Of a stretch of DNA of 64,000 nucleotides, positions 24,011-44,350 are shown piece after piece (the first letter of the stretch is position 1; each line of letters opens with the position of its first letter). Under the pieces are notes generated by a model. That model worked only from the letters and a program-made list of their open reading frames with translations, did no database searches and was not told where the DNA came from. This stretch comes from Psammoneis japonica (lineage: Eukaryota): assembly GCA_008632985.1 (NCBI GenBank), contig QPGO01000067.1, forward strand, positions 62,001 to 126,000, read 5' to 3'. Made by a program: the position numbers and the translations under genes.

Positions 24011-27000
24011 TGAAAACACATCTGCATCACCTTGGTGCAGAAAAGGACACAAACAACATCAGGCTTGAGCAGAAACAGAGAATTTTTGTCTGTCAGCAGA
24101 TCAACAATGTGCTGCACACAAGCCAGAGCATTGAGCTGAAGAGCCCGCACTCCAGCCAAGCATGTCACACCCAACAGCAGCAAAAATCCAGAGCCTCCAC
24201 AATGTTGAATTTGAAATGATGTGAGTGGCTGTGACATTTGTGAAACATGAAAAACAGCAATGCAGAGACATTGGGCATCAGCTGAAGAAGTGCTGTTTGT
24301 CCAACAGTGGGGTGCAGACAGAGACAAGCTGTTGATGCCAACTTTCTCCACAAGGTGTGCTTGCAAAGCATTTTTGTGGCAAATCTGCATGTTGCCATTG
24401 CACAGATCTGGGCCAAGTCTTTCATTCTCAAATCATGGAAGCACTGGTGTTTCTCATGGTTGGCTTGCTGTGCAGCTGCACAAAGGTGCACTTCTTCAAT
24501 GAGCAGAGACTGCAAAAGGAGGCTCAGATGAGGTCGCAAGTGTCCTGCACCTTTGTTGCAGAAACCACACAAACTCAGATGTGCTGCACATCTTGGCTGT
24601 CATTTGCTGTGATGGTTGTGCCAGACAAAGTTGGAACAACTGACTGGCACTGTTCTTTGAAACAATTGTGGACCCACACTCTGCTCCTTTTCCCAAATGA
24701 AATTGCCCGCTGGTTGACAAGACAGTGTGAACTCACTTTGCTTTTGTTTTGTTGCTGTGTGAGGCATTGGGCAGCACCTGCAAATTGGCACTCAAGAGAT
24801 TGATCTCTCTGTTCTTGTGGCAACATGTCCTCTGGCCACACACGCACCACTGAGCCAGACACACAGGGTGCAAGAGTTCAGAGGACTGCCCAAAAGATGC
24901 TGATCAGCATCTTTTGGGAAATCAATTTCCTGGGATGGCAGGTTTGTTCATGCCATGTCCAAAAGCCCTGATCTGGCCCTGGACAATGGTGTGTTGTGGG
25001 CTGGGATCACAAATGGGAGCTCTGACCACTGCCATGCATCTTCTTCCACACCAGCAAAAGCAGGGGGCAACAAGTCAAAACCTTTCAGAGTCCTGATCCC
25101 CCAAGCACTGTTTCTGTGCCCCCCACTCAGTGAGTGACTTGTGAGTGACTTTTTTCAACTGCCATTGCTTGAACTTTGGGTGTGGCAAGGACAGATTTGC
25201 ACCAAGAGACAGTTTTCTCAATGGTCGCCAGATGAAGCGCTGGCGCACCACACTGATCTTCCAAATGCTGCTGTGCACAGAAACAAGCAATGTGAGTGGA
25301 AATGGCAGAATTTTCAGAACAAAAGTGCAGTGCTCCCACACCTTGGTCATGCCGATCTGTGTGGCTTGGGCAAGAGAATGCCAAGGGCCAATGGAAGCAT
25401 TGACCAAAGGCACCCAGATCTCAAAACAAGGCCTGATGATGCTCATCTGAGGAAGATGAAAGTGAGGTGCTTTTCATCATGTTTGGAGTGTGATGTGGGA
25501 AAATGAGTGAATGTCTCCAGGGATTGCTGTGGTTTGATGGAAAAGAATGGAAAAGAAGAGCTCTGCCTGCAAGACAAAGGCAAAAAGGAAGGAAAAAGAA
25601 TGGGGTGAGCTGCTCAGCACCATGTTGCCACCTGAGAAAGAGGAAATTTTGGCTGTGGCTGTGCCAGAAGCCAAGGGATCTAAAGCTGCCAGCATTTTTT
25701 TCCAGAGGGACAGATTGTGGGCAAGCAGGTGACAATGAGAGTGCACAGTCAATGGAGCACTCTTCTTTGGAGTTGACAACACTTGGGGGAAGAGGCAGGG
25801 GGGGGGAATGATCAAGCCAAGGCTCTGCAGAAGGAATTCATCAAAAATGCAAAGGAGAAGAGTGCAGCTCTGCCAGAAAGAAAGTGTGCAAAAAGTGAGA
25901 GTTTGTGTGTGAGCAATGGTTTGACACATTCAATGACATGAATGATGTGCAGGGATGACATGGCAAAAGAGTGGGAGAGCAGGTTGATCAGCTGAAATGT
26001 CCATGCAAACCAGCAACTTTAATGTGACAATGTGTGTTTGTCTTTTGCTCACCTTCATCATTGGCAAAGTCACATGAATTGTTGCAGCACACTTCTGGCT
26101 CCTGCTGAGAAACAACTTTCAAGTCGACTGTTTGAGCAAGGTGACAGCATGAGCATGCATCCAATGCACTCTCCTCCATTGTTTTCCATGATGCTTTTTT
26201 AACATCAGCCAAATGCCCTCAGCTTCTACATGGATTTCTGCACAACTTCTCACACTGATGTCACCCTTCTCAGATGGTGTTGTGTTGGCTCCAACAAGCC
26301 CATTTTGTCCACAGTTGCCAGCAGCACAACTTCATTGCAGCATGAAGAGCAATGTTCTTCAGCGGAAAATGACGGGTGTCAAAGCCTCATGCTTTGCATG
26401 CTGGCTGCCATTCATTGTAATTTTCTGTCATCTTAGAAAATTTTCTGCAGCACACAGGCTCCAGTGCAAATTCTGCATGGCTCTGCTGAAACCACTGATG
26501 ATCTGCATGACACATCTCTGCAGTCAACTTTGGTCCCTGCCAGTTGGTCTTCAATGCCACTTCCTTTCTCTGCCATTTGGTCAAGTCTTTTGCTCTTGGG
26601 GTGAAAGCACTTCCTCTGTTGTGGCTCTTTCCAGCACAAACAAGAGCGGCACCCTTTGGCATCAGTTGGTTGTCATCTGCTTGCTTCACCCACCAGCATT
26701 TCTGCACAATGTCTGGCATTGTTTCTGTGTGTGACAAACATTTTTTCTGATGACCCACCCATCTCACCTTCAAAGCTCCCAGCTCCATGCATCCAAGTTT
26801 TTTGCACAATCTTTCCTTTGCATGAGTGCAGTTCTCTTTGGTGCATGAATGAGTGGCCTTGCAGCCCAGGTCAGTGTTGGCTTTGGAAGCACATTCCAAG
26901 GTGCTCAGTGTTTTTTTTTTGAAGACCACCAGTCATCTGAGCATGGCTGTCCTGCGCATCTGTGGTGCACCTTTTGTTGCTGTCACCAAAAGTGTGCAAC

Positions 27001-27529
27001 AAAGTCCTTGTGCAAATTGTTTCCATTCAACTGTTCAGTGGGGTGTCACTGACAGGTGATGCCCACACTGGCCAATTGGCAGCACTTCTGCCACACTGTG
27101 CAGTGTGCTGGAAGCATGGGTTGGCCAGCACCGGCACAGCCAACAATGGAGCAGCAGCACTCCAAGTGCAGATCTGCTTTTTGCATCTTCTTCAATGGCA
27201 CTGGTGGTTGACAATGCAAAACACAAATGAAGGAGCGAGAAGGCTCAAGAGAACATCACCAAAAACAAGGTGGCACACTCAAAAACTCGGCGTTGATGTG
27301 CTGCTTGTGGCTCACAGTGGCTCTCAAGCAAAAAGCAACAACAGCGGGGGGGGGGGGGGACAGCAGTCAAAAAGCAGGGGTGAGTGTCATGGTGAAGTGA
27401 TGGTTGAGAGCAAGATGTGACCATGCAAAATCTTGTGTGGAATCTTGCGAAAATTGATTGTTGAGAATCAGACCTCATGGCGCCAACTGGAATCTTGTGA
27501 AAATGGAACTCTTGTGAAAAATCTGTCAC

Positions 27530-29790
27530 ATGAATCTGAAGTCAAAATGGCGATCATTGTCAACAAGAAGTCAATCAACAGTCCCAACCATCAACCATGT
27601 GTTGCATGTCAATGGCTTGCACATCACTGAATTGAACAATTCAAGAAGAATTGACTTCTTCATTGCTTTTTTTGGTCAAAAGAGCACAACAACAACATCG
27701 AGCAAGAGTGTTTTGGCAGCATTTTCGACTCCAGAATGGCACCCAAAGCACAGAAAGACTCTCACAAGTGACACAAACTGTGCTCTGTCAAACAAGGCTG
27801 GAACATTCATCACAATGTCTTGATTGATGTTGCTTCTTGCACAAAAGCCACCATTGTCATTCACAATTTCGAAGTTGGTGTGAAAATCACTTTGTGTTCA
27901 AAATTCGTGATTGCACATTTTCATTGATGAGATGTTAGAATGTTCAGTGCACAAATGAACCATGTGTGAGCAGTTTTTTTGAGGCATGTGCACAACAAGT
28001 GCAAAGCAGCACAATGTTGGACAGACAACAGTCGTGCATTTGTTGCGATTTGTGCGACAAATTGCTGTCAATGCCGCCGCCGCCGACGACATTTTTCTCA
28101 TGCCCTCACAGGATGACTTTGCAATGAGCACTTGTCACAATGATTGACTGCACTGTTTGCAACATGAGTGTGTGAAGAAAGTCCCCCTGACAAAGTCTCA
28201 ATCATTCAACAATGAATGCATGACAGTGACAGGCAGGAAAACAAAGCTTGGCATTGACAAAATGTTTTGCTTTTGAGTGGAGGTTGCTCTTGGGGACTTT
28301 CATGACTGAGCACATTCTCAAACTTAATGACCCAAATGTCTGTGATGACAAAAGACTCTGGGACATGTTGCTGTCATTGCTGTTGTTGCAACAACGCACC
28401 ACCATCATGTTGCCAATTTTTGGCGATGATGCACACAGCGCGCACAAAGTTTCCAGCACAAAAAAGTTCAGAAAGTCCAGTCATCTTGCCATCCATCAGC
28501 TCATTGTGCAAATGCCTTTAAAGTCAGTGACAGCCATGCTGAAGAATTGAACTTTGATTCTTAAAAGAAAACAGGATGGCGGAACTTGTGAATCGTCCGT
28601 TGAGTGTGCACATTGAGCTTGAATTTTGCACTCAACAGAAATCCAATTCTCAAGAATCAGCACCCGGATTCTTGAGGAGGGTCATCCCCACGTTTGTCCT
28701 GGAATTGCTGTGGCATTTGAATGAGGATGTTTGCAGTGTTCATTTTTTAATGCAAAAATTGTTCACATTCACCCCCGATCGTGCACCAAAACAAGAACAT
28801 CTGGCACCGCGATTGAGGCACGACAATGACGGCAATGTTGACACAGCTCAAAAACACAGTGGTCCATCCTCAATCATTTGATGCATGTGTGACCTTTGAC
28901 ACATCACAGCAAACATAAAATGAGTGAGAGTTGACAGATGGACCACCTCCGTCAAAGACTTGTGGCTTGATGTGTGTTTTCGCCATGGTGGGGCATGGTG
29001 AAAATCAGGAAAAACCATGCAAATCATGAGCTGTTTGGTCAAATTCGAGCTGAAAAAAGCAGCAAATGACCCCCCCCCCCCCCCCTTGAGAATCGGTTTT
29101 CACAAGTTTGTTTGCAGCAGATCTTCTTTGTCAAAGCTTTCTCGCTGTCATTGACACACGCGTTGGCTCATGTGAAAGATCTTTTTCTCCACTTGCTGGC
29201 CATTTGATTTTTGCAAAAACTTCTTGGCACAGGCCCATTGTGCACCCAAAACCCCAAATTGCACACATTTTTTTGGCAATTTGTGCAGTGCGTGCAATTC
29301 CACGTGTCTCTGGTGCTGGATGATGGCAAGACGTGCGACAATCCAATTGAAGGAGAGTTCAACCGCCCTGCGTTCATCGTGAATTTCAAAGAGGAGCTGA
29401 AGGTGCACAAGGAGAAGATTGATGAAACAGATGATGACCATCATGGCACGCATGCATTGAAAATGCAGGAAGGCAGCTGGAGAGGAGCACGATCTGAGCA
29501 ACCTTGAAGAACACACGGGCCGACTGGCTTGGAAAAGAAGATGTTGCAGAGGTTGCAAGGAGGAGGGTTTGGGAATGGCGGCATGTTCACCATGAGATGC
29601 ATTTGTCCATGTCTGAAGCTGCACATCTGGCCAGTGGTCCTCGTGCAACTTTCCAGCACTTCAGCTGAGCAAGCTTTTTCTCGGCTCAAGCACATTGTTG
29701 AGACAGCTCAGCGCAGCACGCTGCATGATGCCATTTTGTTGCATCTTTTTTCTTGTTTGCACTGGGGACATGATGTCAATCAAGACTGTT
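27530..29790 (+). mobile_element. hAT-superfamily transposase remnant
   Basis: C-terminal dimerisation motif VLVQLSSTSAEQAFSRLKHI (compare SSASxERxFS), preceded by FKEELK and an ARR..VWEW-like segment. Many stops and frameshifts. The 5' limit is approximate. Confidence 0.7.
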
Positions 29791-30291
29791 GGCAGTGCTG
29801 CAAGAGAAGCTCAGATTCGAGAGAGCTCTTTCTCAGCTCCATCGCGGCTGCCATGATGGCGCAATTTTGTTGTGTCATTTTTCTCATTGGCAAATGAGGG
29901 GTGTGATTCAGTGGCAATGCAGTGCAGCAGCAATGTGGTTGATGTGATGTGGCAGCAATGTGATGCACCAGCAATGTGGTGCAGCAAAATGCAATCGAGA
30001 AGCAATGAGCGGTGTCATTGCCGCGTTGCCGGTGATGAAGCACGATTGCGCTGAACCTGGCACTGCACCACGTACATTCATTCTGCGCAGTGCAATGCAT
30101 TGCGCATTCTGCTGACAGAAAATCCCCACTTTGGGTGGGGGGTGGGGGTGAAATCATTCGAAAATGTCGCGTGGGTCATAATTGATTTTTTGCATGTGGA
30201 AAAACACAAAATCGTGTAGAAATGTACACAATGTCATACGAGAGAATGATTAGAGCTAACAACTTTTCGGGAACTGAATTGAAAAATGCTG

Positions 30292-30344
30292 TCTGATCGA
30301 CGGTGTTGGCCTTCACCATGTGAATCAAAATGCCGTCGATCAGA
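30292..30344. repeat. Imperfect palindrome/hairpin
   Basis: tctgatcgacgg ... ccgtcgatcaga forms perfect 12-bp arms that extend imperfectly to about 25 bp. Confidence 0.75.
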
Positions 30345-30346
30345 TG

Positions 30347-30844
30347 CCAGCAAAAAACCGAATTGAGTCCCCATTTTTGCCACATGTTGAATGGCCATTT
30401 TTTGTCCATCATTGGCCTAAAACTGACCATTTCTTCGCATTTCCTAGCTTTTCATCTCGCGTAATGACTCAATTCGGTCCCCCTGTACATTTCTACGTGT
30501 CAAGTACCAGAAGAAATTCAACATATCTCCAAATCAGCAACCAGCACGGAGGAGTGATGATATATGATGTACGTGTCTTGATAAAAAAATTACATGAGAA
30601 TTGTTGAATCTCGTTTTCGCTTCAAAAAATACAAACGACCATGTTCGACGGCAACGGGAAGCCGAAGAAAACTGAAACACCCAAATCCAAGCACATGGTC
30701 AGAAGCAGCAGCGATTGAAGATTGTCACAGCAACAAGAACAGTTTGATTACTTTTTTTTTCATCATTTTATCGATCGATTCAACATATGGGTCTGACAAG
30801 GACTCAGTTCAGTCACATAAGGACTCAATTCGGTTTTTTACTGG
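30347..30844. mobile_element. MITE with 24-bp TIRs, probably Tc1/mariner type (TA target site)
   Basis: Left ccagcaaaaaaccgaattgagtcc; right ggactcaattcggttttttactgg followed by TA. The left flank reads TG. Confidence 0.75.
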
Positions 30845-30859
30845 TAGGGCCCTAGCTAG

Positions 30860-30987
30860 CATTTCAATTTATTTCCCGAGAAGCTCACATTCATATACGG
30901 ACGGATGGACAGACTGATAATAATTATTCTTAGTACTCTCCTACACAATTTCTACGTGATGACTCTCAGGACCCGAATGATTCCTAC
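30860..30987 (+). repeat. Short dispersed element with a (GAC)-type microsatellite, possibly Helentron-associated (DINE-1/HINE-like)
   Basis: tttcccgagaagctcacattcatatacggacggatggacagac; second copy at 23883-24010. The family assignment is by resemblance only. Confidence 0.45.
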
Positions 30988-31026
30988 TTTTTTTGCACTG
31001 CGCATACGCAATGGGCCTGTGCCTAA

Positions 31027-32364
31027 GGCACGTTCCCACCCTGATAATTTCGGCCGTAAAATAAATATAATTTGGCCAAATTTACGTATTTACGGGCGTC
31101 AGACTGGGAACGAATTCGATCGGTAAAAAACATCAAAATCTCATGTCGAGCTCGGTGAGGACGCTACACGCGCTACAGCTAGAGCACTGTTGACCGTGCA
31201 CTGCTACCCTCTCTACTCTAGCTAGAGTAGAGGCTTTCTAGAGCTAGAGTAGAGCTGGAAATCGTTGTCCATTTTGCGATTGCTCTACGGTAACTGAAGA
31301 CTCATAATACCAGTGAAGGTCGGAAGAAATACATCCAATATCCAATCACTAGCAAGAGTGCAGAGAGAGCAGAAAGACCCACGAAACAATGGCATGCAGT
31401 AAGACTACAGCATGTAAACTACTAAATGAAATTTCTACAGCGTATAAGGTGCTAAAAGGCACTATTCTTATCTCTTGCAGTTTACCAATGGCTTAAATCC
31501 ATTTCAAAGAGCAAAAAAACACAGAGCAAGTCGCAGAGAAGAGAGCAGAAAATAGAGCAAGGCACTGTGAGGCACATTGCAGACGATGTTGTGCAAAATA
31601 TTGACCCCCACCAACATAATTGTCCCAACTTACGATGAGGTTAATGAAATAAGTGCACACAGTCTTCTTCATAGTCACATTCTATCACAACGGAGCAAAA
31701 GCCTTGCTGTTGTCGACGTGACCAAAATTCTTGTGTTCTTGACTCTTGACCGTCAATCAAGTATAACAACCTTGAGTATACACCCAAGAACCACCTCAAT
31801 GTAACATCAGATCATATATTGCTGCGAAGATTCAGCGTCAAGTCTGTAGACGCATGGTTTGTGAAGAATACCAACGCGAAATCTGAAAAGAGAAACGAAG
31901 ACATCAAAACTACCATGAGTCGACACGGACGTCATAAGCCACAACAACAACGAAAACTCAAGATTCTGACAAGTTGATCGTATCAAGCGTAGTCTTATTA
32001 ACCTGTCTCTATATTGTTACCTTCGTAGACTGGACGGTCGTTCGTGTATGAACGGGTCCGTTCATGGCAGCAGCCATCATGGTTGTTGTGCGGATCGATC
32101 GGAGCAGAGAAATAAAATGGGAGAGGTTGTGACGTGGCACGTTCGAGCTCCCAAAACGCCGAATTTACCGTGAAAATTATATTTACGGGAGAGAATTTAC
32201 GACGACCGACACCTGTCGTCGTAAATTGCTGATAATTACGGCTGTAAATTGAAGGATGGAAAACAGACGTGCGATTTTTCTTGTACGAGAGTTTCTACAG
32301 GAATTTTATGTAGAACGAAATTATATTTATTTTACGGCCGAAATTATCGGGGTGGGAACGTGCC
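31027..32364. mobile_element. Non-autonomous PIF/Harbinger-like element
   Basis: TIRs of about 47 bp (ggcacgttcccaccctgataatttcggccgtaaaataaatataattt, one mismatch) flanked on both sides by TAA. Confidence 0.85.
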
Positions 32365-32450
32365 TAAAAACTTCAAAACAGTCATTTTCCCGAGTTTTCA
32401 TCATCGGTGGAGGTTCGAGCCAGTCAAAAAATCGCTCGTCACCATTCACC

Positions 32451-33605
32451 ATGGCCGTCGTGCGACGCCAGCCCAAGAGTTTCGTCTCATTGTCGACACT
32501 CTTTCTGGTTGCTGGTGCTTTAGCTGTTGGACTGCTTGTTGGGCGGTTGACTGGGGGCGGACTGGACGAATTTGCCACCACCTCCAACGCACGTCTCGAC
32601 GTCAATAGCAACCAATTTGCGGGCACACGAGGAGGGAAAGCGCTTGGTGAGCAGGAGGATGTGAGAATTACAAACGGCCTTGATTCTTCTCCCTACAGGA
32701 GTCCCTTTCTCAAGACTTTTCCAATGCAAGAGCTGGACCAACTCAATACAGAAGCGGCGGAGAACCGACGAAGACAAGCCAGAAACCGCAACACCACCAA
32801 CTATCTTCACCAAGAATTGAGCAACAACTATCCTTATCTGAAACTAGTCTTGCGCACTATGACCGTGGAAAGCATTTTTGAGGAACCTCAAATAAACGAA
32901 CCCTTCATAACGGAAGAAGGCAAACGGACCAATGGCGGGTGCGACCAAAACTCGCCCAAGTGCATCTTGACGTGGGACGGCTGGGGCCGCGCCATGGCCA
33001 CGGGCGATGTCTTGTACGACGTGATTCGCCGTCAAGTTCCGGGGGACGTGGTTGAGGTGGGCGTTTTCAAAGGAGGCATGGCGGCCTATTTGCAGGCCAT
33101 GCTTATGGCCATGGACGAAACGAGCCGACGCAAGGTGTGGTTGGTCGACTCCTTCAAGGGACTACCGCCCACGTCTCTCATGGTTTCAGCAGTGGATGAT
33201 TCGGGAAGCGCCAACAACAATTCTACGCAGGTTCAGAGTTCTTGGGCTGGCAAGTTGAGCGTGGGCCTGCAAACAGTGCAGAATAATTTGGACCGCATGG
33301 GATTGTTGGACCCTGGCAACGTTGGCTTTTTGGAAGGCTATGTACAGCATTCCCTTCCCAACTGGAACGAAGCGCAGGAAATTGCCATCTTGCGAATTGA
33401 CGTGGACATTTACGCAGCCACATACGACGCGCTGCATTATTTATATCCCCGGTTGAGTCGGGGTGGCGCCGTGCTCTTTGACGACTGGAAATTTGAATTC
33501 TCTCGAGAGGCGGTTATAAACTATCGAAAGAAGTATGGCATCACCACGCCCGTGCAGTTTCTCAATGGGACAGTGGATCCCATGGCCTACTGGATCAAAG
33601 AATGA
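32451..33605 (+). CDS. TylF/MycF/NovP-family O-methyltransferase with N-terminal membrane anchor (copy A)
   Basis: VPGDVVEVGVFKGG, VWLVDSFKGLP, FLEGYVQHSLP, IAILRIDVDIYAATYDALHYLYPRLSRGGAVLFDDW. 384 aa, collinear with copy B. Confidence 0.9.
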   Translation: MAVVRRQPKSFVSLSTLFLVAGALAVGLLVGRLTGGGLDEFATTSNARLDVNSNQFAGTRGGKALGEQEDVRITNGLDSSPYRSPFLKTFPMQELDQLNTEAAENRRRQARNRNTTNYLHQELSNNYPYLKLVLRTMTVESIFEEPQINEPFITEEGKRTNGGCDQNSPKCILTWDGWGRAMATGDVLYDVIRRQVPGDVVEVGVFKGGMAAYLQAMLMAMDETSRRKVWLVDSFKGLPPTSLMVSAVDDSGSANNNSTQVQSSWAGKLSVGLQTVQNNLDRMGLLDPGNVGFLEGYVQHSLPNWNEAQEIAILRIDVDIYAATYDALHYLYPRLSRGGAVLFDDWKFEFSREAVINYRKKYGITTPVQFLNGTVDPMAYWIKE

Positions 33606-34039
33606 ACAGCCTCGGACTCCATGGAAACCATACTCTAATAAGTGATACATTAGTCACGATAATGACGTCGCTCCGACCTCATCGAGCAACCATCTACTCC
33701 TTTTGTTCTTATCTAATGATAAGGTAATGACTTGACGTTGGACCCTTCTATTCTCATTGGTTGCTAACGCTTCTAACCGTGCCAACGAGCAGTGGTGCAA
33801 ATTGATTCATCTGTGGATCGAGGTGTACGGAACCAAACAATCGGAAGGCGCAGACATGTTGTGATCTGCATCAATTGGCTTAAGCTCCAGTGTTTGTACT
33901 TCTCAGCCTGCTCTGTTCTCGTGCGAAAAAACACCACCCAGGCATTGAAGGATCAAATCCCTGGAAGAGTCTTCCCAGAAACAAGAACTGACACAATGTC
34001 AATCGATTGACAGTCCAGCCCCAGCAGAATGTTTCAACC

Positions 34040-34310
34040 TCCAACAATCTCTCCCATCGGCAGAACAGATTTGTGGAAGGTGCTGTCCTTGTCTCATCTT
34101 GGAAATCATTGAGATGATCCATGGGAGCATGTCCAAACCAGTGAAGAACTGGTGCAGACCAAAATCTGTGGACATGTCTCTGTGCCTGGGACAAGGTGCA
34201 AGTGTGGTGGACATTGACACTCCAAACAATGCTTTGGACCCATTCCAGAGAAATGTGATGTGACAGCAACTGCGTCTCACCAAATTCTGAAAAGAACGTG
34301 ACCTGGAGAT
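34040..34310 (-). pseudogene. CDIN1/C15orf41 (TPD domain)-like fragment, mutated copy
   Basis: SKALFG followed, across a frameshift, by QAQRHVHRFWSAPVLHWFGHAP. This resembles the family motif SKAxFG..Y.NRFGPGLVIYWFG. Confidence 0.5.
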
Positions 34311-36129
34311 GAGTGCAACAATTTTTTGGGCACATGATTCTTCTCAATGGCAGGCTTGCGGGCACTTGATTTCACAACAGTCAAGAAGGGAGGCAGCGCA
34401 TGTGGTCCCTCTAGCCTCTCTGCTGTGTGAAGGTTGTGATCAAATCTTGAGTCATGTTGTGGGTGCTCAACCTTGTCAAGTGTGCAGCAGAGCTGTTGCA
34501 AAGCACTGGCAGTGTGTGTTGAGATCATCTCTGAAGTTTGATCTCTGCCTGGGATCACTTGAGCAGTGCAAAGTCTGAGGTGATTGTGAGCCGCACATGT
34601 GGGTGGAGCTGCAACTCCATTGTCTCATTGTTGTTCTCTCTCTCTCTTCCCCCCCCCCCCCCCCTTCTGCATGTGCAGCACACATGATCAGTCAGCTGCT
34701 GTGTGTGATGAGCTCTCTCTTTTGCAGCCCTGATGGAGTGGCAAGACAGCTCAAAGTCAACATTTTTGTGCCACACCTCCTGCAATGCTCTGGTGCAGAG
34801 CCAGAACTTGCAGCTTTGGCCTGGCTCCAGACAATGAGCTGTTCATGGGGCCTGCAACAGAGCCAGCTTTGGCAGACCAATGCAGTCAGAAGATGATTTT
34901 GTAAATTCTTGAGCCCTGCAGGCAAAGGCGGTGAGATGATGAGCAAGTGAAAAACTGTGGGCCATCAGTGGTCAGCCCATGCATGGATAAAAAAGCAAAT
35001 GTGTCAGCTCCACAGACCTGCAGAAACCTTGTCCACTGTCAGAGTGAGGCACAACAAGACAGCTGTTTCACTCAATCATTGTTTTTTTTGCATTTCCTCA
35101 GGCAGGTGACCCCCCACATGTGCTGGAAAGTTTCCATCAGCACATGCTGCCTTTCAGAGATTTGTGCAATGAAGTCACCAACCTCACAAGAAGTTGTTGT
35201 CTTGTCTTTGCCACATGGCACAGTTGCAACCATTGCACTGAATTTTGTCCAGCGTGTGTTTGTTCTTACAAACTTTTTGTGCAATTTGCCAGCACTGCCT
35301 CTTTGGGTGTGCAAGCCCAAAACAAAACAAGCAAGTTTGGGCTGCTGGCATGTGAAGGAGGATGACAATGCAGTCAGTGGCCTGGGGAAGAGTGGCTGAC
35401 AACAGCAGCTTGCAAATCATTTTTGTCAATGTGGAAAAAGCTGTGTCAGGCAGGGTTGACAAAAGTGCAGAGGCAGCACATTTTGTTGCAGCTCCTTGAA
35501 AATTGCCATTGGCCCAGCACAATGCAAAACAGAAATCTCATTGTCAGCGGGGCACTGTTGAATGCAGCCCAGTGCAAGGAGGCTTGCCTTTGTCATCTTG
35601 ACAGTCCAGCCATGTCAAAGCCATTGTTTTGGATCAGTGCAAGCCCAGTGTGGTGACTCCCAAAAATCACAGCTTTCCAGCTCATGCCTTGAGCCAAGAA
35701 CCATCAAGTGGTGTCTCTGCAAATTGCTTCTAACTTTGCACATTAACCAAAGAAATGTTTTCTTGCAACAGAGTTTCTCAAGCAATCCAAGAAAGAGATT
35801 GAGAGATGCAGAAGCTTCAGAATGTTCATCCTTTGTCCAAACTGGCTCCTGTTTTTTGTGCCATTGCTGAGTGCAGAGTTGCATGACAAAAGCCTGCACA
35901 TCATGGTGTTGCAAAAATTTGAATTTTCCTGCCTGATTGGAGCAAAATGTCTTCTGGTAAAATTGCAGCAAACTCAGGTGGCTTTGTGCAACAATTGAGA
36001 CATTCAACACTCACAGCCTTGGAAAGAAAAACTGCCATTTTGTGAGTCTCCACCAAGGTTGTGTGAGGTGCAAGTTGCTGTCCCATTCCCCCATTTCCCC
36101 ATTGACCACCAAAACTGCCACACAGACTG

Positions 36130-36380
36130 GGCAAAATTTGACGTGCAAGTTTCAAATCTGAGATGAAGAGAGATTGCTTTCTTTGTGCAACAAAGACAGC
36201 ACTTTTGCACAATTCAGACACAGTGTTTTTACTTGCCTTTGTGCCACCTAGAAACTGCATTGGGTGCCAGTTTCAAGACTGCTCATTTTGTGGGGGAATG
36301 TGTTCTGTGTCCTTGACTTTCAGAAGCCTCCTTGTTGTTTCATTGCAACTTCTGGAAAGTTCCAAGCTGCCTTCAATTCA
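36130..36380 (-). pseudogene. Possible histone-fold protein remnant
   Basis: FPEVAMK / RRLLKVKD / LKLAPNAVS / VSELCKSAVFVAQRKQSLFISDLKLARQIL, read across frameshifts, resembles histone-fold helices 2-3. Confidence 0.35.
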
Positions 36381-39300
36381 TGTTTGTTGCTGCAGTGCAA
36401 GAGATCATTGCCTTCTGGTGGTGCCAACATGGACAGGGCTTGTCATCACAAGCTTGTCATCCTTCAAAACAAGCTTGCCATTTTTCAAACCAAGCCTGGC
36501 TGCACTTCTTTTTTGTTTTTGCATCTTTCAAGTGACAGAGAGCTGCATGATTTGTGGTGCATTGCCTGTCAGCAAAGCTCAGTGCCCCCACTTTCAAAAA
36601 CTTCATTTTCCACCCTGCTCAAAAAGCAGATGTCACAGCACAACACATTGTCATTGTGTCAAACACACCTGCAGGGGCAAACAACATCAGTCTCTTGTTT
36701 TGACATGATCTGCATTGTCTCACAGCCAAATGGGCTGCTGGTCATTGTTTCACAGCAAACATCTTTCCAGGGGGGTGTCAAGTGTGTTGTGAGGGTGCTG
36801 AAGAGCAAACCTCTCAAAGGTTGTTGTTGGTGAGAAAGACTCTGTTGCATCTCCCACCTGTGTTGCATCAATTCTGTGTCTGTTGCAATCATCAGCTTGA
36901 TGATGTTGCACCTGGAGCAGGCAAAAAAGCCCCAGCATGGTCCATGTGCAAGAACGGTGCAAAAGAAACAACTCCTGACCATGGTTGAGTTTCAGCTGAT
37001 TGTCGTTGGCAAACATGTGTCTGCACAACCACATCCCCACAGCTGCTGTTGGACCTCTAAATGTGCACAAATGATCATCAGCCAAACATGAGTGCCAGTG
37101 GCAACTTTCCCAGTTGTTTTCAAAAGCAGGTAGACAGGGCACTCTCTGACGCTTGTGAGCATCCTCCATGAGTGCTGGAGCCCCATGTGCTGAATGACAT
37201 GGTTGATTGCTTGCAACACATCTCACACATGTTGCCCACAAAACCCTGGACCAACCAGACTCTGTCAGTTAATCTGCACCATGCAGTGCACAGGCCAGCT
37301 CAACAAAGGCACTTGACAAACTTTGACAGCTCTTTCAGATGCACAGCACAAACAAGTTGTCACATGCAACAACTGATGGTTGTCAACAGTTTGGAGAGTT
37401 TGTTTTTGGCATGCAAGCACAAACCCACATGGGGCTCCATGTCATGAGCCACTCTGTGCAGCACCCCCAGCACACAGAGATCCAGATGAACATCCACCAA
37501 CCCTGTGGGTGGAGACATGAGAAACAATGATGGCACATCATGAATCAGCAGGCTGTGGTTTGAAGCTGCTTCTAACTTTTTAAGTTGTTCCTTTGCACAG
37601 CACTCAACAATGTCTCACAAGCATGACATGTGCATCGTCAGATGTGCACTCCAGCTCCAGCCCTGAGGCTGGGTGTCACCTTGGGTGCACAGCTGGAATT
37701 TCATGTGCAAAACTCTGTGTGCAGCAAGGTTGTTTGGCAATGAACAAGTGAGTGATTGCCAGCAGTTTGCACAAACTTCTGCACACTTAAAGTGTTGCTT
37801 CATCTTCAGCAGTGCACTGGCAGTGTGAGGCGCCACCAAGAGCTGGTTTTGGTTGGTCTGCAGGTGCAATTTCTCTTTTGTCAAGTGCAGGAACAACTGC
37901 AAACTTGTGGTGATTTTTCAGTGCCTTTGGAACTTCAATTGAAAAGTTTCCTGCACCCTCTTCTTGGGCCATTTTGATCACCCTGCTCTAAAATCATTCA
38001 ATGCAAAGAGGTCGCCACCAAATCCTCCATGTCCAAATCAGTGTGTGTTGTCATTTCTGTGTCACACAGATCTGTTTTACAGTTGCTTGTGTGTGAACTT
38101 TCCACGGTGCATCAAAGACCTGCAATGATCTCCCATGAATGAAACAGGTCTGTTTTGGAAAGAAATGCCTCGTTGTTCACCATTTTTTACAGCACATGTC
38201 AAACATCCACTGCTTGCATTGTTGATTGATGCTGCTTCTGCAATTTTGCAAAGTTGAAAGAAGTCATCAAAACAACAACCATGCAACACCATTCCCCACA
38301 TGGAACATCACAGCATCATCAAAAAGATTAAAATGTTTTCTGCCATTTTGGTGTGGAATGTGGAGCAGAACACTCAGTCATGAAGCTCAGATTCCAAAGT
38401 TGATCTTTTGGCAGCACGCAGATCTGCAGAGAGCAAAAGGGGCCTCAAAGAGCTTGCAAGTTGGAGCAACTTGGGTCAGACTTCAGAGCAAGCAAACTGC
38501 TCCTGTTGCCTCATTTGGCACAAGGTGCATTTTTTGTTTCACAACACATGGTGCCAATCTGTGCCATGTGGGGCACAGGGGTCATGCCAGCATTTTGAGC
38601 ATCTGCACACTCAGCTGAGTGGTTGTTCAGAAATGTTGCACATGCATGAGTGCTGAGAGAGAGCTGCACTCAGTCAGAGAGAGAGAGAGCATTTGATTTG
38701 AACTTGCTGTTTGACAATGGGGGCATCTTGTTCTTTTGTGCATGGCAAAGTTGTTTTGCAAACCAAGAAGAGCAACACAGCTGCCAGGCAGAGGCATGTG
38801 GGCAGCCTTTCAGCGCAGCAAGTGTCTGGGTGGGCAGTGCAAGGCAACAAGAGCAACAGTCAAGACAAATCACATTCTCAGCAGACTCCTTGATTGGAGC
38901 ACAAGGCAAACTTTGTGCTTGGATTGGTGCCCTCACTCTGTGTCATGTGTGCACCTCTCATCTCCAGAGCTAGACATGAAGGGCTTGCCTGAGCCTTGCA
39001 CTCAGTGGCCCCATTTGGCACCCATCTGTGATGTGTGCAACACTTGCACCCCATCATGAGATTTGCATCTGTTGTGGACTTCAAACAAGAATGCCCTGGC
39101 TGCTGCCCCTCTTTGTCAATGTTGAGTGGCACACTTGTGCTCTGGCCAGCAGTGGTGCTGGGGCAGCTCTTCACACGATGGACACAAAAGAAATGTTGCA
39201 CCAGCTCCTCCATCTGATGCAAGTCATGACCTGACAAGCCTGTGGGTTGGGTGGCATTGCTGGGTGCAAGGGAAAGCAACATGTGGATGAATTTCTGAAC

Positions 39301-39490
39301 GCAGCACTTTTGTTGTTTGTGCATTCATTGGTGCATGGCAGTTGCTCTCAGCACTCAGCAAACCACCATCAAATCTTTTGAATTCAAGTCAAAAGTGTGC
39401 AGAATGATGCCAAAATGCTCACATGCACACTCCACACAAAAATGTGCTTCATGCCAAAAATGAAACTCCTGCCCAGAAGCTCTCAAAATC

Positions 39491-39668
39491 AGAGCTCATC
39501 CAAGCTCCTGACATCAGCAATGCTCACCATGGAAAACTGTCAACTGTTGACATGTGAATTGCCAGTCACCAACAGCTTCCTTTTTCCTTGCCACTTTTTC
39601 AGTTCACCACAGGAGAGCAACTCGTGTGATCTAAACAATCACTCACTTTTCACACTTCTCCACTTTTG
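39491..39668 (+). repeat. 5' LTR-like direct repeat
   Basis: gagctcatccaagct..acatcagcaatgctcacc..ttccttgccac..ggagagca..atcactcacttttcacac..ccactttt matches 44351-44518. It is followed by tggtgc, a possible primer-binding site. Confidence 0.7.
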
Positions 39669-41708
39669 GGTGGTGCTTTGACAGTCATTTGAACACATCA
39701 CATCAACCACAACCAATCCCCCACCAAGCAAATGCTTGAAATCATAATCTGTGGATGAGTCCCTTGCTTGCAAATCCTGTGTCCAAACATTCACCCTGAA
39801 GAAGCATGTGTCACACGCCCATGGTTGCACCACCTTCACATCCTGCCCAGCCATCACCACTGACATGAGAAATGTTGAACGCTGCCTCACATTTCACATG
39901 ACAAAAATGCTTTGGCCAGTGCATCCAGAGATGTCCCCTGCTGACCATCTCAACATCATGGACAATTTGACCAATTCTGCCAGCACCATTGACATCCAAA
40001 CCAACAAGCACAAGACTGTTGACAAAAGGTCCCTCAAGAAACCAGCAAATCTCCAGGTGCCATCTCATCATGATGCTGGAGGCAACATCATCCCAAACTG
40101 TCTCTTGACAGTGCAGGCATCACCAAGCCCATCCAGGATGGCCCAACAGCAGACCGCCACCATGATGACATCATGTGTGCACCACGACCATCATCAACCT
40201 TGGCTCTTTGCATGGCAACAGGAATCTTGCCATTGCATTCTTCATCTGCTGACTGCCCATGAACAACACTCAACCACTCAACACAGCCAGAAACCCTGCA
40301 AATGTGTGCACTTTCAGCAGTCCTGGCAATTGCATGACCCCACCACCAGAGCAGGATCATCAAGACCTTGCTCACCAACCCAAATGAAGCCACACCATCT
40401 GCTGAACTTGTTGGTGCCATTGTCAACTCCCTCATCATCAGCACCAGCTGCAAACACACTCTACAGTCTGCAGGATGGTCTCTTGTCCATTGCTCCTGCA
40501 TTCATTTCCTGTTCATTGACGACCCATTCAAGATGATCAATCACATGCATCAAGTCAATGACCCATCTGATGATGCCATTGTCAAGTCCACCATCCAGGA
40601 ACACCATGACAACTGCAATTTTGACCTGCCAACCCTCACAAATCAGACACATGTGCAATGGCAGTGGAACCCACTGTGTCTCTTCATTGACAATCTTGAC
40701 TCTCAGATCTGCCAAAAGATCAGGGCAAAAAGACTCCACAGTCATGTGGAGACTGTGTCCCTCCTCTGCTCTGAACAAGCCAGACTCATCCAAGCTGCTT
40801 TCACAGCAACTGAGACAGCCAAGTTGAATCTCACCACTGATTGTCTGTTCATCCAAGGCAAGCTCCGCAAGACTCATGGCTTTGTGACTGTTGCTCAGCA
40901 GCCAACCATCCAACAACCTCTTGTCTCCAATGCACCCACTGTGGCCAAAGCAGCGGCCAAGGATCAAACTGTCATTGCACTCCCAGTGCTGCCAAGAGTG
41001 CCCCCAATCATCAGAAATTCATGGGCAAGTCAGGTTGCTGGGGGTGTGGAGCTGCAGAACCCCTCCACTGTGATTCCAAGACAAAAACAATTGTCTGTCC
41101 TTACACCAATGAGCCAGAGATTCACAAGAATGCTGTGTGTGCAAGGATTTCAACAAGTGCATGAAGAAGCACCATGGTGGCAATTGTCGCACACTCAAAA
41201 TCTTTCTCACACCAGCAACCTTCTCCTGTTGGCACTCCCATCTCCAAAGTCTAAATCCAGAGGCAATGACCAGCTCGCTGGTCTCATTGTCAACTCAAGC
41301 AAGCAATCCTTGGGCAGATCCAACAACAAACATGAGAGAGCAACTCCAAGTCAGTCATCACTCTTCACATGCACATCTGACAGTCCATGTCAAGAAACCT
41401 TCCTCAACTCCCCATCCTGGTGAACAACATGCTGCATCATGTCGTGCTTCAACTTGGCCTTCCCAATGGTGCATTCAACCCATGTGCTGTTGTTGATGGT
41501 GCTGCTGCTCTCATGTGCAGCAACAGCAATTGTGGGGTGCCCACATTGCAAAGGTGCACCCCCTGAGCCAGCCAAGACAGCACTTGTCATGTCAAGGGTT
41601 GTTGCTCACTCATCACACTGATGACAAAATTGCGGTCAACATGTGTCTTTTCATTTCCTTGATTCTGTCTGCCCTGCAACACCAAAAGTCTCTGAAAATC
41701 AATGTGGG

Positions 41709-41907
41709 AAAGAGCATTTCCATGAACCCGTAGAAAAATGCCGATTTCGAATTTTTTAGCTCGAAAAACAGCCGACAACACTGATGAAGCGAAAGCGAAA
41801 GCTCACATCATCGAGCTTTGTATGTCAGGCAACTCTCAATAGATTGCTGTTATGCTGAAGGCTGTTGGTGCATTAGACAACCCCGAAAAAAGAGCATTTC
41901 CATGAAC
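41709..41907. repeat. Insert of about 160 bp retaining CG and TA, flanked by a 19-bp direct repeat
   Basis: aaagagcatttccatgaac at 41709-41727 and at 41889-41907. Confidence 0.85.
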
Positions 41908-44350
41908 TGCACTGTCGCCATGAGCTTCATCTCAACAGCCAAGTTGGTCATGGACTTTTTGAAGATGACACAGTTGATTTTAAACTGCATGATTGTGATC
42001 TCCATTTCCCATGGAATTCCACAGCCTGGCTTGCTCAGCTTTGAAGCTGCTCCCTTGCAATGAGTGGGCATCATCCAGCTCAAATCTTGTCACAGATGGG
42101 AGAGATTGACAAGTTTGTCAAGAACTGCTCCTGTGACACAGAACCTGGCACTGGTGCTTTCACCTCACAGATCTCCCCAAAAGTCTGTTTTGATCTTGGT
42201 CCATCCATGACCACCATTTCTGGTCAGCACCGTGCACCACACATCTCAGCATCATGCATGATGTCAAAGTCACTTGCAAGTGATGATTTCACATCACATC
42301 ATGTCACACATCTTGACATTGCTCAAACACACTGTTGACATCCTGAACACACCTCCATTGCAGGGTCAAATGATCAACATTCCTGAAGCACCACATCATG
42401 CCAAGAAGCCCAACCTGTTTGAAAGACAGAATGTGCCAGACACTGAAGACAACTTTTGTCTCCTCCTTCATGAGGCTTGAGTTGGCAAAGTCATCAGAAA
42501 GAAGACTCATCTGAATGCACGGACCTGGACATTGACCCCAACTTCACTTCTTGAACCTTCAATCCAGCCCAAGACACCAAAGAGCTGAAAAAAAATCTAC
42601 AACTTGATGAGGATTTGTGCCAGAGGATGTCAAGTCTTGTGTCATTGAGCTCATCAAAAAGCATCATTGTTGCTGCTGCTGCAAAGAAAACATCAAAATC
42701 CCCATCCAGGACTGTGAATGCATTGTCAACACAGGTGCAGCAAAACCAACAGCAGCCAAGAACATCCAATGCAGCCTTCACAAAACCTCTGTCATGAATG
42801 AAGCAATTGATGCCCTGCTGGAGAATGGACACATCATCCCCAACACATCAAGGGGGTGGCTGTCAAGGATCATTCTTGCCCCCAAGCCACACCAGGAAGA
42901 CATCACAGACATCAATGAATTTGTCTGGCAATTCTGTCTTGGTTGTGTCAACCTCAACCAAATGACAAAGGCAGCCTCACATTGAACTCCTTGCTGTGAT
43001 GATGCCACAGAGCACAGTGTTTCAGCTCCACCTCACATTTGTTCCTGCTCAACTTCTTCAATGGATGCCTTCAATGGATGCCATCAAATCAAGATGGGGG
43101 CACTGTCAGCTGCTAAAACTGCATTTGCTGCCCCCCCAAAGGCCAAAAGTGTCAGCACACCATCATGCCTTTCAGAGTTGTGAACAGGCCCACCACACGT
43201 GTTGCAACGGCACACAACGTGAAGGACAGCTGGGACAATGAAGCCAAAGTCATGGGTGTCACACTCAATGACAGTGATGGCTGGTCCTTCACATTGCCTG
43301 CCATCACAACTTGTCTTGAAACTTGAAAAAAATGCCTTTTCTTCCCAAAATCAGTCAAGTTTGTGGATCATGTTCTCACCACTTTGGGCCATTCCAAGAG
43401 TGGATTGCTCAGATGTTGGAAGCAACCTGGAAACATGTGAGACATCTCCAGCTTCATCTGCTTCTTTGGCAGCTTGTGTCAACAGCACATTCCATCATGC
43501 TTTGCGGACCAAGCAAGCACCAATCTATGAGTCAGTCAAGAACCATGACTTCAGCTGCAAGATCAAGGACTCCAAACAGACCGATGCCCTCAACAGTGAG
43601 TTTGAAGATCATTTTAAATCCACCATCTTGTCAAAACCATTGCTCTGTTGAGTTGATCACAACAAGAGACCATGCCTGCATGCTGACTTCTTGGGATGAG
43701 AGATGGCCCATGCACTCCTCCAGCCCAGAGATGATGAAGCATCCTTGGCAGGCCTCAAACCTCACATCAGAGAAGGAGTGCCCTTTGCTGGGTGATTTGT
43801 GAAAACTCTCATGTGGTCCATGGACAGCCACTTGCCAATGTTGGAGACTGCTGCAGACTGATGTGGTGGATCATGTGTTGTGAAGGCTGCCATCCTGCCA
43901 TTGCCAACCACCTGCAAATGAAGCTGGTGTCATTGTGGTTCACTGTTGTCCACCAACCCAACTGCACACTCATCAATGCCGTCCACTTCTCACAATGATG
44001 TGGCCAAGAAATCAACTTGGACCCCATGCTTGCTGGGCACATCTTGACAGCACAAGAGCAACTGGCATCAGACATCTGCTGCTGGCAGCCACACAGGAAC
44101 AGAAGTCAAAGCCAAGAACATGCCTCATTTTTGTTGCAATGCAAAAGCAATCAAACAAGCTGACACCATTGCTGTCCAATCTGGTCCAAGTGAATTGGAA
44201 GAACCGTCATGCTGGAGAACACCCCAGCATCATTTGGCACATCTGGCAAACCAACAGCCCCACCCAGACACTCCGGTGCCTGACTTTTGCCTGGATGTTT
44301 TCAAAAGCTCTTTGGCTTTTGCCATCTTAGTTGATGGGTGGCTTGAAAGT

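Follow-up and report, generated by a model that had tools for sequence, protein, structure and literature searches.

Two domains depleted of TpA and CpG in a diatom genome, and a segmental duplication that indicates the direction of change

The region analysed here (the window) is a stretch of 64,000 nucleotides from Psammoneis japonica (assembly GCA_008632985.1, contig QPGO01000067.1, positions 62,001 to 126,000), and all coordinates refer to it. BLAST and global alignment (32300-35300 against 48400-51400) delimit a segmental duplication. It comprises a pair of TylF methyltransferase genes, both intact, together with the 3' end of an HGH1-like gene in convergent orientation. Copy A lies at 32423-34775 and copy B at 48525-50910, both on the forward strand, and the credible part of the global alignment ends at about 34775 in A and 50910 in B. 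Copy A contains the gene TylF-A, intergenic DNA and the HGH1-like last exon in decayed form. TylF-A (32451-33605, forward strand) is an intact TylF-type O-methyltransferase gene of 384 codons (Pfam PF05711, E=7.5e-45); TylF-B (48553-49707, forward strand), identified by the Pfam profile and by comparison with copy A, is likewise intact and has 384 codons. The two products are identical at 329 of 384 residues, with a dN of 0.077 and a dS of 0.172. The duplication is an old one within the diatom genome, with a synonymous divergence of 0.17. A metagenome scan with TylF-B returned 132 pattern matches, none of which was confirmed.

TylF-A sits in an unconverted island separating two TA/CG-depleted domains, which were delimited by composition and site mapping: block 1 (16772-30072) and block 2 (33898-47025), each of about 13.2 kb. 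Overall, the observed/expected ratio (O/E) in both blocks is near 0.03 for TA and near 0.08 for CG; in the block cores it is 0.00-0.13 for TA, 0.04-0.26 for CG and 1.6-2.3 for TG and CA. TA and CG together constitute 9.5% of dinucleotides outside the blocks and 0.8% in their cores, TG and CA together 14.2% and 23.7%, and the loss and the gain balance. Block GC (0.45-0.53) equals that of the flanks, and TG and CA are doubled. Both blocks are single-copy by read depth. A Pfam search of 128 block ORFs of at least 90 aa gave no match above threshold and six weak sub-threshold matches, among them a protein-kinase C-lobe remnant at 46064-46387 (E=0.0012, below the cut-off). No Rfam family reached the gathering threshold anywhere in the window, and none of 2230 homologue candidates scored against the longest block ORF (P0020, 361 aa). 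Period-3 power in a purine/pyrimidine code gave no signal over most of the block, a measure too noisy to reveal former coding. Close to their left ends the blocks have about 0.5 kb of homologous sequence in common (17030-17142 matches 34964-35083, and 17447-17535 matches 35150-35238), and in purine/pyrimidine coding their homology is confined to the first 1.4 kb or so. A diagonal at offset 5400 between the blocks was rejected as most likely a poly-pyrimidine tract near 34640. From just three small repeat families, we infer that the blocks are transposon graveyards.

The left edges of both blocks are sharp. In block 1 the final dense TA is at 16771 and the final dense CG at 16895, about 100-230 bp upstream of the ATG (16667) of the HGH1-like paralogue C. 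In block 2 the edge lies about 250-300 bp downstream from where TylF-A stops. Dense TA continues to 33826, two TA survive at 33881 and 33897, and the next is found at 34412. The start at 33850 given in a preliminary description of this DNA is a real edge, which the A/B duplication places to within about 50 bp. On the right, CG returns gradually from about 27000 in block 1 and from about 45700 in block 2. TA returns in block 1 from 30073, where an unconverted MITE-like element starts with its left terminal inverted repeat (30075), and in block 2 from about 47026-47175, adjoining high-copy repeats. The right-hand 1.5-3 kb of both blocks is TA-free and retains 25-45% of CG. Surviving TA lies in TTAA in 27% of cases (3% outside), with no survivor in ATAC, ATAT or GTAC; surviving CG is found in GCGC and CCGC, and TCGA is depleted. 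These differing flank biases are at least as compatible with two distinct activities as with a single enzyme.

The duplication crosses the left edge of block 2, and the two copies were compared on either side of it. Left of about 33850 the copies differ at 9.6% of positions and context bias is absent; by BLAST, identity is 88.6% between 32423-33942 and 48525-50054 and 79% between 33956-34190 and 50141-50385. In the in-block part of copy A (33851-34775), the TA and CG dinucleotides of copy B read TG or CA. Of 33 TA sites in B, 18 became TG, nine CA and four another dinucleotide, with two kept; of 36 CG sites, 14 became TG, 11 CA and nine another, also with two kept. Conversion to TG/CA amounts to 27/33 for TA and 25/36 for CG, against retention of TG at 45/49 sites and of CA at 45/61. 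Outside the block (32423-33850), TA was kept at 33/49 sites and CG at 77/91, and the difference between inside and outside is highly significant (Fisher tests, p=1.3e-8 for TA and p=2.5e-17 for CG); TG and CA do not differ significantly in the same test. The changes aligned by eye in the preliminary description, such as atcgtcgagacgatcc -> atcattgagatgatcc and ccagtaaagaactag -> ccagtgaagaactgg, are all reproduced in the global alignment, and the dinucleotide count of the aligned copies agrees with that reading, as TA and CG are lost far above any other context. The shift that it had reported from TA to TG holds for 18 of the 33 TA sites, and the change to CA at nine others had gone mostly unmentioned.

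Counted per base within the block, 34 of the 68 A positions in TA context differ (29 by A>G), as do 40 of the 78 C positions in CG context (31 by C>T), which amounts to about one change per TA or CG dinucleotide. C>T in other contexts affected 23/300 positions, against 31/78 at CG. The broader WA preference suspected earlier was not borne out, since A>G in AA (13/116) is not significantly more frequent than in CA and GA together (17/227; p=0.31). Divergence at non-target sites in the block is 100/643 (15.6%), near the dS of 0.172 of the neighbouring TylF pair, and the acceleration is restricted to target sites. Non-target transitions overall are about two-fold more frequent inside the block than outside, consistent with relaxed coding constraint. 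The dinucleotide fates, the non-target divergence and dS give both arms an estimated rate at least about 30-fold that of neutral transitions. The strand that takes each change appears random from site to site: strand runs are absent among the 52 A/B events to TG/CA (runs test, z=-0.18), and lag autocorrelation across the block does not exceed 0.05. TA -> CA, the opposite-strand form of TA -> TG, is about half as frequent in the pair (9 against 18). A flank preference in the choice of strand was set aside, given the small number of TA events (about 27).

Polarity is provided by the HGH1-like gene. In copy B, which lies outside the blocks and has normal TA and CG content, its last exon is intact and ends in a TAA stop (50742-50864, reverse strand; acceptor CAG|GAC and homologue match), with the end of exon 1 at 50972 and an intron at 50865-50971. 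The exon peptide (..DYERENWC..NEACCVCGGG..EL*) agrees with the conserved C-terminal sequence found both in the in-window paralogue (DQDYEENNWC..NDACCACGGG..EL*) and in the homologues P0003, P0004, P0006 and P0007. In codon-level alignment, the decayed counterpart in copy A (34603-34737, reverse strand) carries TAC (Y) -> TGC (C), a C|G to CA change across the TAC-GAA codons that gives E>K, GCG (A) -> GTG (V) and a TAA stop -> CAG (Q), all at former TA/CG sites, besides several indels. At the three outgroup-conserved residues among these (Y, E and A), the outgroup state is present in copy B. The protein outgroups therefore bear out the proposal that copy B, with its intact last exon, is ancestral.

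The same TA/CG to TG/CA pattern recurs in four more repeat pairs with one copy in a block and one outside, and summed over the five pairs, including A/B, 43/54 TA and 51/69 CG sites were converted. A MITE-like copy in block 1 (23690-24011) is partly converted relative to the unconverted copy at 30075-31013, with TA -> TG/CA at 6/6 and 7/11 sites and CG -> TG/CA at 6/8 and 2/5. Repeat comparison identified converted copies of a further element, repeat R, at 39482-39670 in block 2 and at 44342-44520; its unconverted copy (47329-47396 plus 48404-48496) is interrupted by an element of 979 bp that bears terminal inverted repeats. Site mapping and read depth revealed an unconverted 161-bp insertion in block 2 (41728-41888), which has 7 TA and about 10 CG, is bounded by identical 19-bp direct repeats (41709-41727 and 41889-41907) and has a read depth of about 403 against about 60 around it. 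Conversion reaches about 94% in old block DNA, 62-76% in the MITE copy at 23.7-24.0 kb and 0% in the 161-bp insertion, and so grows with the time spent in the block. In block 1, self-comparison revealed an array of five tandemly repeated units, each about 187 bp long (19005-19972). TG and CA are mixed among its copies in 8 of the 21 columns with a YR step in every copy, indicating that the copies were converted independently, after amplification. The high-copy repeats at 31.0-32.3 kb and 47.0-48.3 kb (depth >1000) are unconverted, with normal TA and CG.

In Logan contigs of run X1 the depth over block 2 is 50-68, against 56 on flanking genes; the contigs agree with the window at about 99.7% of positions (14 differences in 4937 bases for record 2), and one spans the block edge (33570-34630). 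X1 is the only run found to contain this sequence, with no RNA run listed, and this support may not be fully independent, as the run and the assembly may derive from the same sample. Among 40 of the 110 differences between X1 and the window, a selected subset, those within the block number 32, of which 21 are single TA/CG <-> TG/CA steps and three are CA<->TG double swaps. Within the 40 of 110 differences listed, this polymorphism spectrum suggests recent activity. A block of similar composition is present in the metagenome contig L009, one of 25 loci obtained with an unrelated gene family. Its 1.07 kb (4574-5648) contain 1 TA in 1075 bp, against a TA content of 4.97% in the remainder of the contig; for CG the two figures are 1.4% and 5.1%, and for TG+CA 22.8% and 14.9%. 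L009 has no sequence similarity to the window and is an independent instance of a similar signature from another organism and project. As the right ends of the blocks and this metagenome block are TA-free yet keep 25-45% of CG, TA loss is the faster of the two.

It is very probable that, in the block only, nearly all ancestral TpA and CpG dinucleotides became TpG or CpA by one transition each, in place and up to the limits of a domain, with TA changing faster. The bounds are those of a domain and not of homology, because the TylF half of copy A and the whole of copy B are untouched. A converted site is no longer a target, and GC content and the total of pyrimidine-purine steps are thereby left unchanged. 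The complete explanation, which adds a base-modifying activity to this in-place, domain-wide process, is probable. The activity would modify bases in double-stranded DNA and would be directed to a chromatin domain, probably one of silent heterochromatin, with TpA and CpG, two self-complementary pyrimidine-purine steps, as its presumed targets; the domain seems to end at active genes, namely TylF-A, at its 3' end, and paralogue C, at its 5' end. The likely outcome would be permanent inactivation of what resides or arrives in the domain, such as transposon copies and gene fragments, including the HGH1-like exon of copy A.

The specific chemistry can be proposed tentatively. In its simplest form, the CG arm would be the change of 5-methylcytosine to T in methylated CpG, and ordinary methylated-CpG decay, running at some 30-fold the base rate, would be enough over the A/B divergence to explain that arm alone. 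For the TA arm, either the A of TpA may be deaminated, or a TET/JBP-like activity may oxidise 5-methylpyrimidines (T in TpA and 5-methylcytosine in CpG), which would then mispair and yield T>C and C>T. We know of no genome-defence system with the chemistry needed by the TA arm. A further reading, which is possible rather than probable, is that diatoms of two or more unrelated lineages possess a GC-neutral counterpart of RIP, with a main arm formed by an enzyme that changes T:A -> C:G specifically at TpA of duplex DNA in silent chromatin, beside methylated-CpG loss. On this reading the two arms would jointly remove both palindromic pyrimidine-purine steps and leave transposons and captured genes disabled for good. 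Such an enzyme could be an adenine deaminase or a thymine-oxidising dioxygenase.

That duplicated DNA was sensed by a RIP-type homology trigger, with either the A/B duplication or an old duplication of blocks 1 and 2 as the cause, is very unlikely. The mutated stretch does belong to a duplication, the blocks are near-equal in length with short homologous pieces near their left ends, and DNMT4, which is related to fungal RID, is reported to occur in many diatoms (PMC9998398). However, a single copy is mutated, and in just 0.9 kb of 2.35 kb; the TylF part of the duplication has no context bias, and the mutated domain continues 12 kb past the end of the duplication. Blocks 1 and 2 are non-homologous beyond about 0.5-1.4 kb even in the transition-proof purine/pyrimidine code, and the high-copy repeats retain TA and CG. 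Contiguity and collinearity of the mutated part with the unmutated part of the same duplication also argue against hyper-editing of RNA (ADAR-like A-to-I and APOBEC-like C-to-U) followed by reverse transcription into the locus. A>G together with C>T is typical of such editors, and ADAR favours a 5' U neighbour, but the AA context is not significantly enriched, conversion of TA is near 100% against roughly baseline elsewhere, unlike the graded preferences of ADAR, both strands changed at random without strand-coordinated runs, and the copies of the tandem array were converted independently and in place. RNA editing is accordingly a most improbable source.

Functional blocks, such as long transcripts or nuclease-resistant DNA, might instead avoid UpA/TpA and CpG by selection, as UpA and CpG are low and UpG and CpA high in cytoplasmic RNAs and RNA viruses (PMC3829696). 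This is highly improbable, since the depletion is near total (O/E about 0.03), non-target sites diverge at the neutral rate and a fresh insertion with normal TA and CG is tolerated. We know of no case of selected TA/CG avoidance close to that ratio. In addition, a captured pseudo-exon and decayed transposon copies are affected too, and over most of the block there is no conservation, ORF or Rfam family, nor a period-3 signal in that noisy measure. Heavily modified TA and CG sites might have been misread in DNA that in truth still has both dinucleotides. Some long-read basecallers read modified bases as transitions, and run X1 may share its sample with the assembly. A sequencing or assembly artefact of this kind has next to no probability: noisy or strand-discordant reads could not yield the multi-kb X1 k-mer contigs, with their normal depth and agreement of about 99.7%, and strand-symmetric miscalls predict all-CA and all-TG versions, whereas TG and CA are randomly mixed on one strand. 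The changes, moreover, come with non-target divergence, indels and a decayed exon, and the L009 metagenome contig bears the same signature.

To our knowledge, the known systems of genomic-DNA hypermutation (RIP, RIP-like CpG mutation and APOBEC/AID) all change C to T, whereas the local and nearly saturating process found here has A:T -> G:C at TpA as its faster arm. No description of joint TA and CG hypermutation was found in the literature searched, and the joint process appears new. The A/B duplication turns an odd composition into a directed spectrum, with an ancestral state, a relative rate (about 30-fold) and an edge. As base composition is unaltered, scans based on GC content or a RIP index would miss the process. 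If general in diatoms, it would account for stretches of unrecognisable 'dark' DNA, would be a new type of genome defence in major ocean primary producers and would indicate an unknown duplex-DNA-modifying enzyme. Were the reading as a GC-neutral counterpart of RIP true, that enzyme would be a natural, context-specific A:T -> G:C editor of duplex DNA.

The process is like RIP in Neurospora and other ascomycetes in being permanent, regional, transition-only and dinucleotide-specific, and in destroying coding and obscuring repeats. RIP, however, is C:G -> T:A only and acts mainly on CpA, thereby creating TpA and lowering GC, whereas here there are 29 A>G at TA beside 31 C>T at CG, CA is kept at 45/61 sites, TpA is erased and GC is unchanged. 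RIP affects both copies up to the limits of homology; here only the in-domain part of copy A is affected, and the block extends 12 kb further. Here the faster arm is A:T -> G:C at TpA, and the host is a diatom. RIP requires a RID-type DNMT and is premeiotic. DNMT4/RID-like enzymes are those reported in many diatoms (PMC9998398). Transposons of basidiomycetes undergo CpG-directed (TCG) hypermutation (PMC3318451), which, with methylated-CpG decay, shares the CG -> TG/CA change; here too CG preceded by T is the context most depleted, TCGA being rare among the survivors. The conversion of 25/36 CG sites follows the direction of methylated-CpG decay, but both of those processes leave TpA untouched and do not reach a TA O/E of 0.03, and the loss of TA goes beyond them. 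ADAR and APOBEC/AID likewise make A>G and C>T changes with nearest-neighbour preferences. They act on RNA or single-stranded DNA, in strand-coordinated clusters and in TC, WRC or graded 5'-neighbour contexts, none of which is seen here: the runs test (z=-0.18) and the AA comparison (p=0.31) depart from ADAR, and the confinement of C>T to CG (31/78 against 23/300) without strand runs departs from APOBEC/AID. Base J and 5hmU have been reported at the T of TpA, and the TET/JBP superfamily oxidises 5mC at CpG. A TET/JBP-like activity would join both targets as 5-methylpyrimidines in palindromic YpR steps. One account of 5hmU (PMC6313786) treats its abundance in passages silent on TpA. Base J and 5hmU are epigenetic marks and are not known to cause near-complete mutation. 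Suppression of UpA and CpG in RNA viruses and mRNAs lowers the same two dinucleotides, with UpG and CpA high, but it is mild, selective and acts at the level of RNA, whereas here the loss is near-total and the DNA is mutated in place.

TpA and CpG are erased by single transitions in a real, in-place process that is restricted to domains of the window. Blocks were detected from dinucleotide observed/expected (O/E) ratios per kb along the window, which reveal two depleted stretches, at ~17.0-30.0 kb and 33.9-47.0 kb. In the block cores TA O/E is 0.00-0.13 and CG O/E 0.04-0.26, TG and CA reach O/E of 1.6-2.3 across the blocks, and GC content is unchanged at 0.45-0.53. TA accounts for 3.74% of dinucleotides outside the blocks and 0.29% in the cores, CG for 5.77% and 0.51%, and TG and CA together for 14.2% and 23.7%. 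The pyrimidine-purine total is therefore kept (23.7% outside vs 24.5% in the cores), as expected from transitions at TA and CG.

The left edges are sharp: at block 1 (16772-30072) the last dense TA lies at 16771 and the last dense CG at 16895, and at block 2 (33898-47025) dense CG continues to 33849 and dense TA to 33826, beyond which TA survives at 33881 and 33897. Gene ends adjoin both, namely the ATG (16667) of an HGH1-like gene, paralogue C, at block 1 and the stop codon (33605) of the methyltransferase gene TylF-A at block 2. On the right side, TA is missing until 30073 in block 1 and ~47026 in block 2, and CG returns gradually from ~27000 and ~45700, respectively. On the right side of block 2, where TA is absent and CG retained, positions 46064-46387 give a weak match to a protein kinase C-lobe (Pfam E=0.0012, below cut-off), which may be a host gene remnant.

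Beside the right edges lie high-copy elements (30075-31013, 31026-32365 and 47412-48390) that have terminal inverted repeats and are unconverted; read depth in X1, a sequencing run that contains window sequence, is above 1000 there vs ~60 in the blocks. Three MITE-like elements occupy the interval between block 1 and TylF-A (30075-32365): the first (30075-31013) has 21-bp terminal inverted repeats and encloses a nested element (30347-30844) with 24-bp repeats, and the third, at 31026-32365, has 48-bp repeats that are 98% complementary; X1 depth exceeds 1000 over 31.0-32.3 kb. The 979-bp element at 47412-48390 has 27-bp repeats and holds a 212-bp hairpin (arms 47441-47652 and 47698-47909, 96% complementary). 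This hairpin part may be polymorphic, given that 47433-47912 is missing from X1 contigs.

Homology does not bound the process, as blocks 1 and 2 are homologous over only ~0.5-1.4 kb near their left ends. The blocks are nearly equal in length, at ~13.2 kb, and their sole common stretches are 17030-17535 and 34964-35238, with 85-92% identity in purine/pyrimidine coding.

The segmental duplication used as an internal control in the preliminary description was borne out by self-BLAST and global alignment, and pairs copy A (32423-34775), the right part of which lies within block 2, with copy B (48525-50910), which lies outside. Each copy carries an intact TylF-type methyltransferase gene of 384 codons (Pfam PF05711), and the two proteins have 329 of 384 residues in common (dN 0.077, dS 0.172, ratio 0.45). 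A and B diverge at 137 of 1422 positions, without context bias, in the part outside the block (32423-33850) and at 174 of 789 in the part inside it (33851-34775). TA sites inside the block are mutated more often than other contexts, as had been claimed: the A of TA is changed in 34 of 68 cases (29 A>G), compared with 12-22% in other contexts, and the C of CG in 40 of 78, 31 being C>T. The wider WA preference also hinted at was not significant (p=0.31). At 34640-34677, a point at which X1 contigs break, copy A has a CT-rich run and then a poly-C tract, in place of the short C run of copy B.

Dinucleotide fate was counted from the copy B state to the aligned copy A state. Inside the block, 33 TA sites became TG (18), CA (9) or another dinucleotide (4), with 2 kept, and 36 CG sites became TG (14), CA (11) or another (9), again with 2 kept; TG was kept at 45 of 49 sites and CA at 45 of 61. 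Outside the block, 33 of 49 TA and 77 of 91 CG sites were kept. Retention inside the block is significantly lower than outside for TA (Fisher test, p=1.3e-8) and CG (p=2.5e-17), and does not differ for TG or CA. Non-target divergence inside the block is 100/643 (15.6%), approximately equal to dS, and the acceleration is therefore restricted to TA and CG. With 94% of target sites lost and neutral sites diverging by ~0.04-0.05 transitions per lineage, the target-site rate would be ~30-fold over neutral.

The direction of change can be read from a gene that copy B contains in part. The window is eukaryotic and diatom-like, with long ORFs, few introns and GC of ~0.47, and encodes a DUF6824 protein, C2, DnaJ, UCH, gelsolin, S41 peptidase and RRP6-like proteins. 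The nearest relatives of the minus-strand ORF 50927-52384 are in MMETSP and a Bacillariaceae MAG, with identity of at most 52%, and a Prymnesium match carries the name HGH1 homologue. This HGH1-like gene B (50742-52348, minus) is a paralogue of paralogue C (15363-16685, minus), with 48% identity in exon 1, and both paralogues have a conserved C-terminal ..ACCxCGGG..EL motif on a short last exon of its own. The last exon reported as intact in copy B is indeed so: it spans 50742-50864 on the minus strand, is preceded by an intron (50865-50971; donor GTGAGT, acceptor CAG), and encodes a peptide ending in the family motif ..ACCxCGGG..EL*, common to paralogue C and the homologues P0003, P0004, P0006 and P0007. 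Codon alignment from copy B to copy A shows TAC->TGC, a cross-codon CG->CA, GCG->GTG and TAA stop->CAG, along with indels. At three outgroup-conserved residues the outgroup state is present in copy B, which is thus ancestral, as the first reading had argued.

Purine/pyrimidine-coded BLAST, in which transitions cannot hide homology, was used to find further repeat pairs inside and outside the blocks. A MITE-like element has a copy inside block 1 (23690-24011) and one outside (30150-30331 and 30859-30988), and repeat R has copies inside block 2 (39482-39670 and 44342-44520) and outside (47329-47396 and 48404-48496). In all four alignments, where the copy outside has TA or CG, the copy inside has TG or CA; pooled with the A/B pair, conversion to TG or CA affects 43 of 54 TA and 51 of 69 CG sites. 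In a five-unit tandem array (19005-19972), TG and CA are mixed among copies in 8 of 21 all-YR columns, indicating that the array amplified first and its units were then converted independently.

Noisy or strand-discordant reads were considered as a source of the pattern, but these cannot give multi-kb k-mer contigs at normal depth. X1, which comes from the one sample listed and may be the assembly's own data, contains 0.89 of sampled words. Its Logan contigs have a depth of 50-68 over block 2 vs 56 on flanking genes, one of them (record 1, 33570-34630) spans the block 2 edge, and agreement with the window is ~99.7% (record 2: 14 differences over 4937 bases). A selected subset of 40 of the 110 differences includes 32 events within the block: 10 pair TA or CG in the window with TG or CA in X1, 11 show the reverse, and the remainder are 3 adjacent CA<->TG double swaps, 5 other transitions and 3 transversions. 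Double swaps are expected if one target site was resolved independently in two haplotypes and, within this selected subset, suggest recent or continuing activity.

A metagenome scan with the HGH1-like family alignment covered 25 short loci, 72 kb in all. One of these, L009 (5732 bp, GC 0.46), carries genes for an LRR protein and for a member of the family that shares 33-37% identity with every other member, and contains a block (4574-5648) with one TA in 1075 bp, sharp edges and TA-rich flanking DNA, including on its left side. Block and remaining contig differ in TA (0.09% vs 4.97%), CG (1.4% vs 5.1%) and TG+CA (22.8% vs 14.9%). The contig belongs to an organism other than that of the window, and no similarity between L009 and the window was found. 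Long TA-free stretches elsewhere in this set of loci are a different phenomenon, on contigs with GC of 0.63-0.73 and CG O/E >1.

Strand choice is random, with a runs test z of -0.18 over 52 A/B events to TG or CA and autocorrelation of at most 0.05 across each block. On the plus strand of 39000-45000, C exceeds G (GC skew -0.10 to -0.27), A exceeds T and CA exceeds TG (153 vs 93 at 40-41 kb), which could mean that conversion has a regional strand bias despite the absence of site-to-site strand runs. Conversion grows with time in the block: it is ~94% in old block sequence, 62-76% in the MITE copy, where transversions are fewer, and 0% in a 161-bp insertion (41728-41888) within block 2. This insertion has normal TA and CG, identical 19-bp direct repeats on both sides (41709-41907 overall) and an X1 depth of ~403 vs ~60 around it, and looks like the recent arrival of a small multi-copy element. 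TA loss outpaces CG loss, in that the right sides of both blocks, like the metagenome block, are TA-free but retain a quarter to a half of their CG. TTAA accounts for 27% of surviving TA, compared with 3% outside, and ATAC, ATAT and GTAC for none; surviving CG favours GCGC and CCGC, and TCGA is depleted.

The domain would correspond to silent chromatin, the spread of which would be halted by active genes, and the CG arm may reflect 5mC deamination. The TA arm could arise from adenine deamination at TpA, or from TET/JBP-like oxidation of 5-methylpyrimidines (T at TpA, 5mC at CpG) to mispairing forms; TET/JBP-like enzymes are reported to prefer TpA. The flank biases of TA and CG targets differ, which makes a pair of distinct activities no less likely than a single enzyme. 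To our knowledge, the TA-arm activity is without precedent in any genome-defence system. Full-text literature searches outside subscription journals found no description of joint TA and CG hypermutation, nor of anything similar in diatoms; the papers returned concern only fungal RIP, viral dinucleotide bias and base editors. The process differs from repeat-induced point mutation (RIP), APOBEC/AID and ADAR, as the tested defining features of each failed here. According to passages of PMC9998398, many diatoms possess RID-related DNMT4 genes of function not established; as a lead, these genes bear on the CG arm alone.
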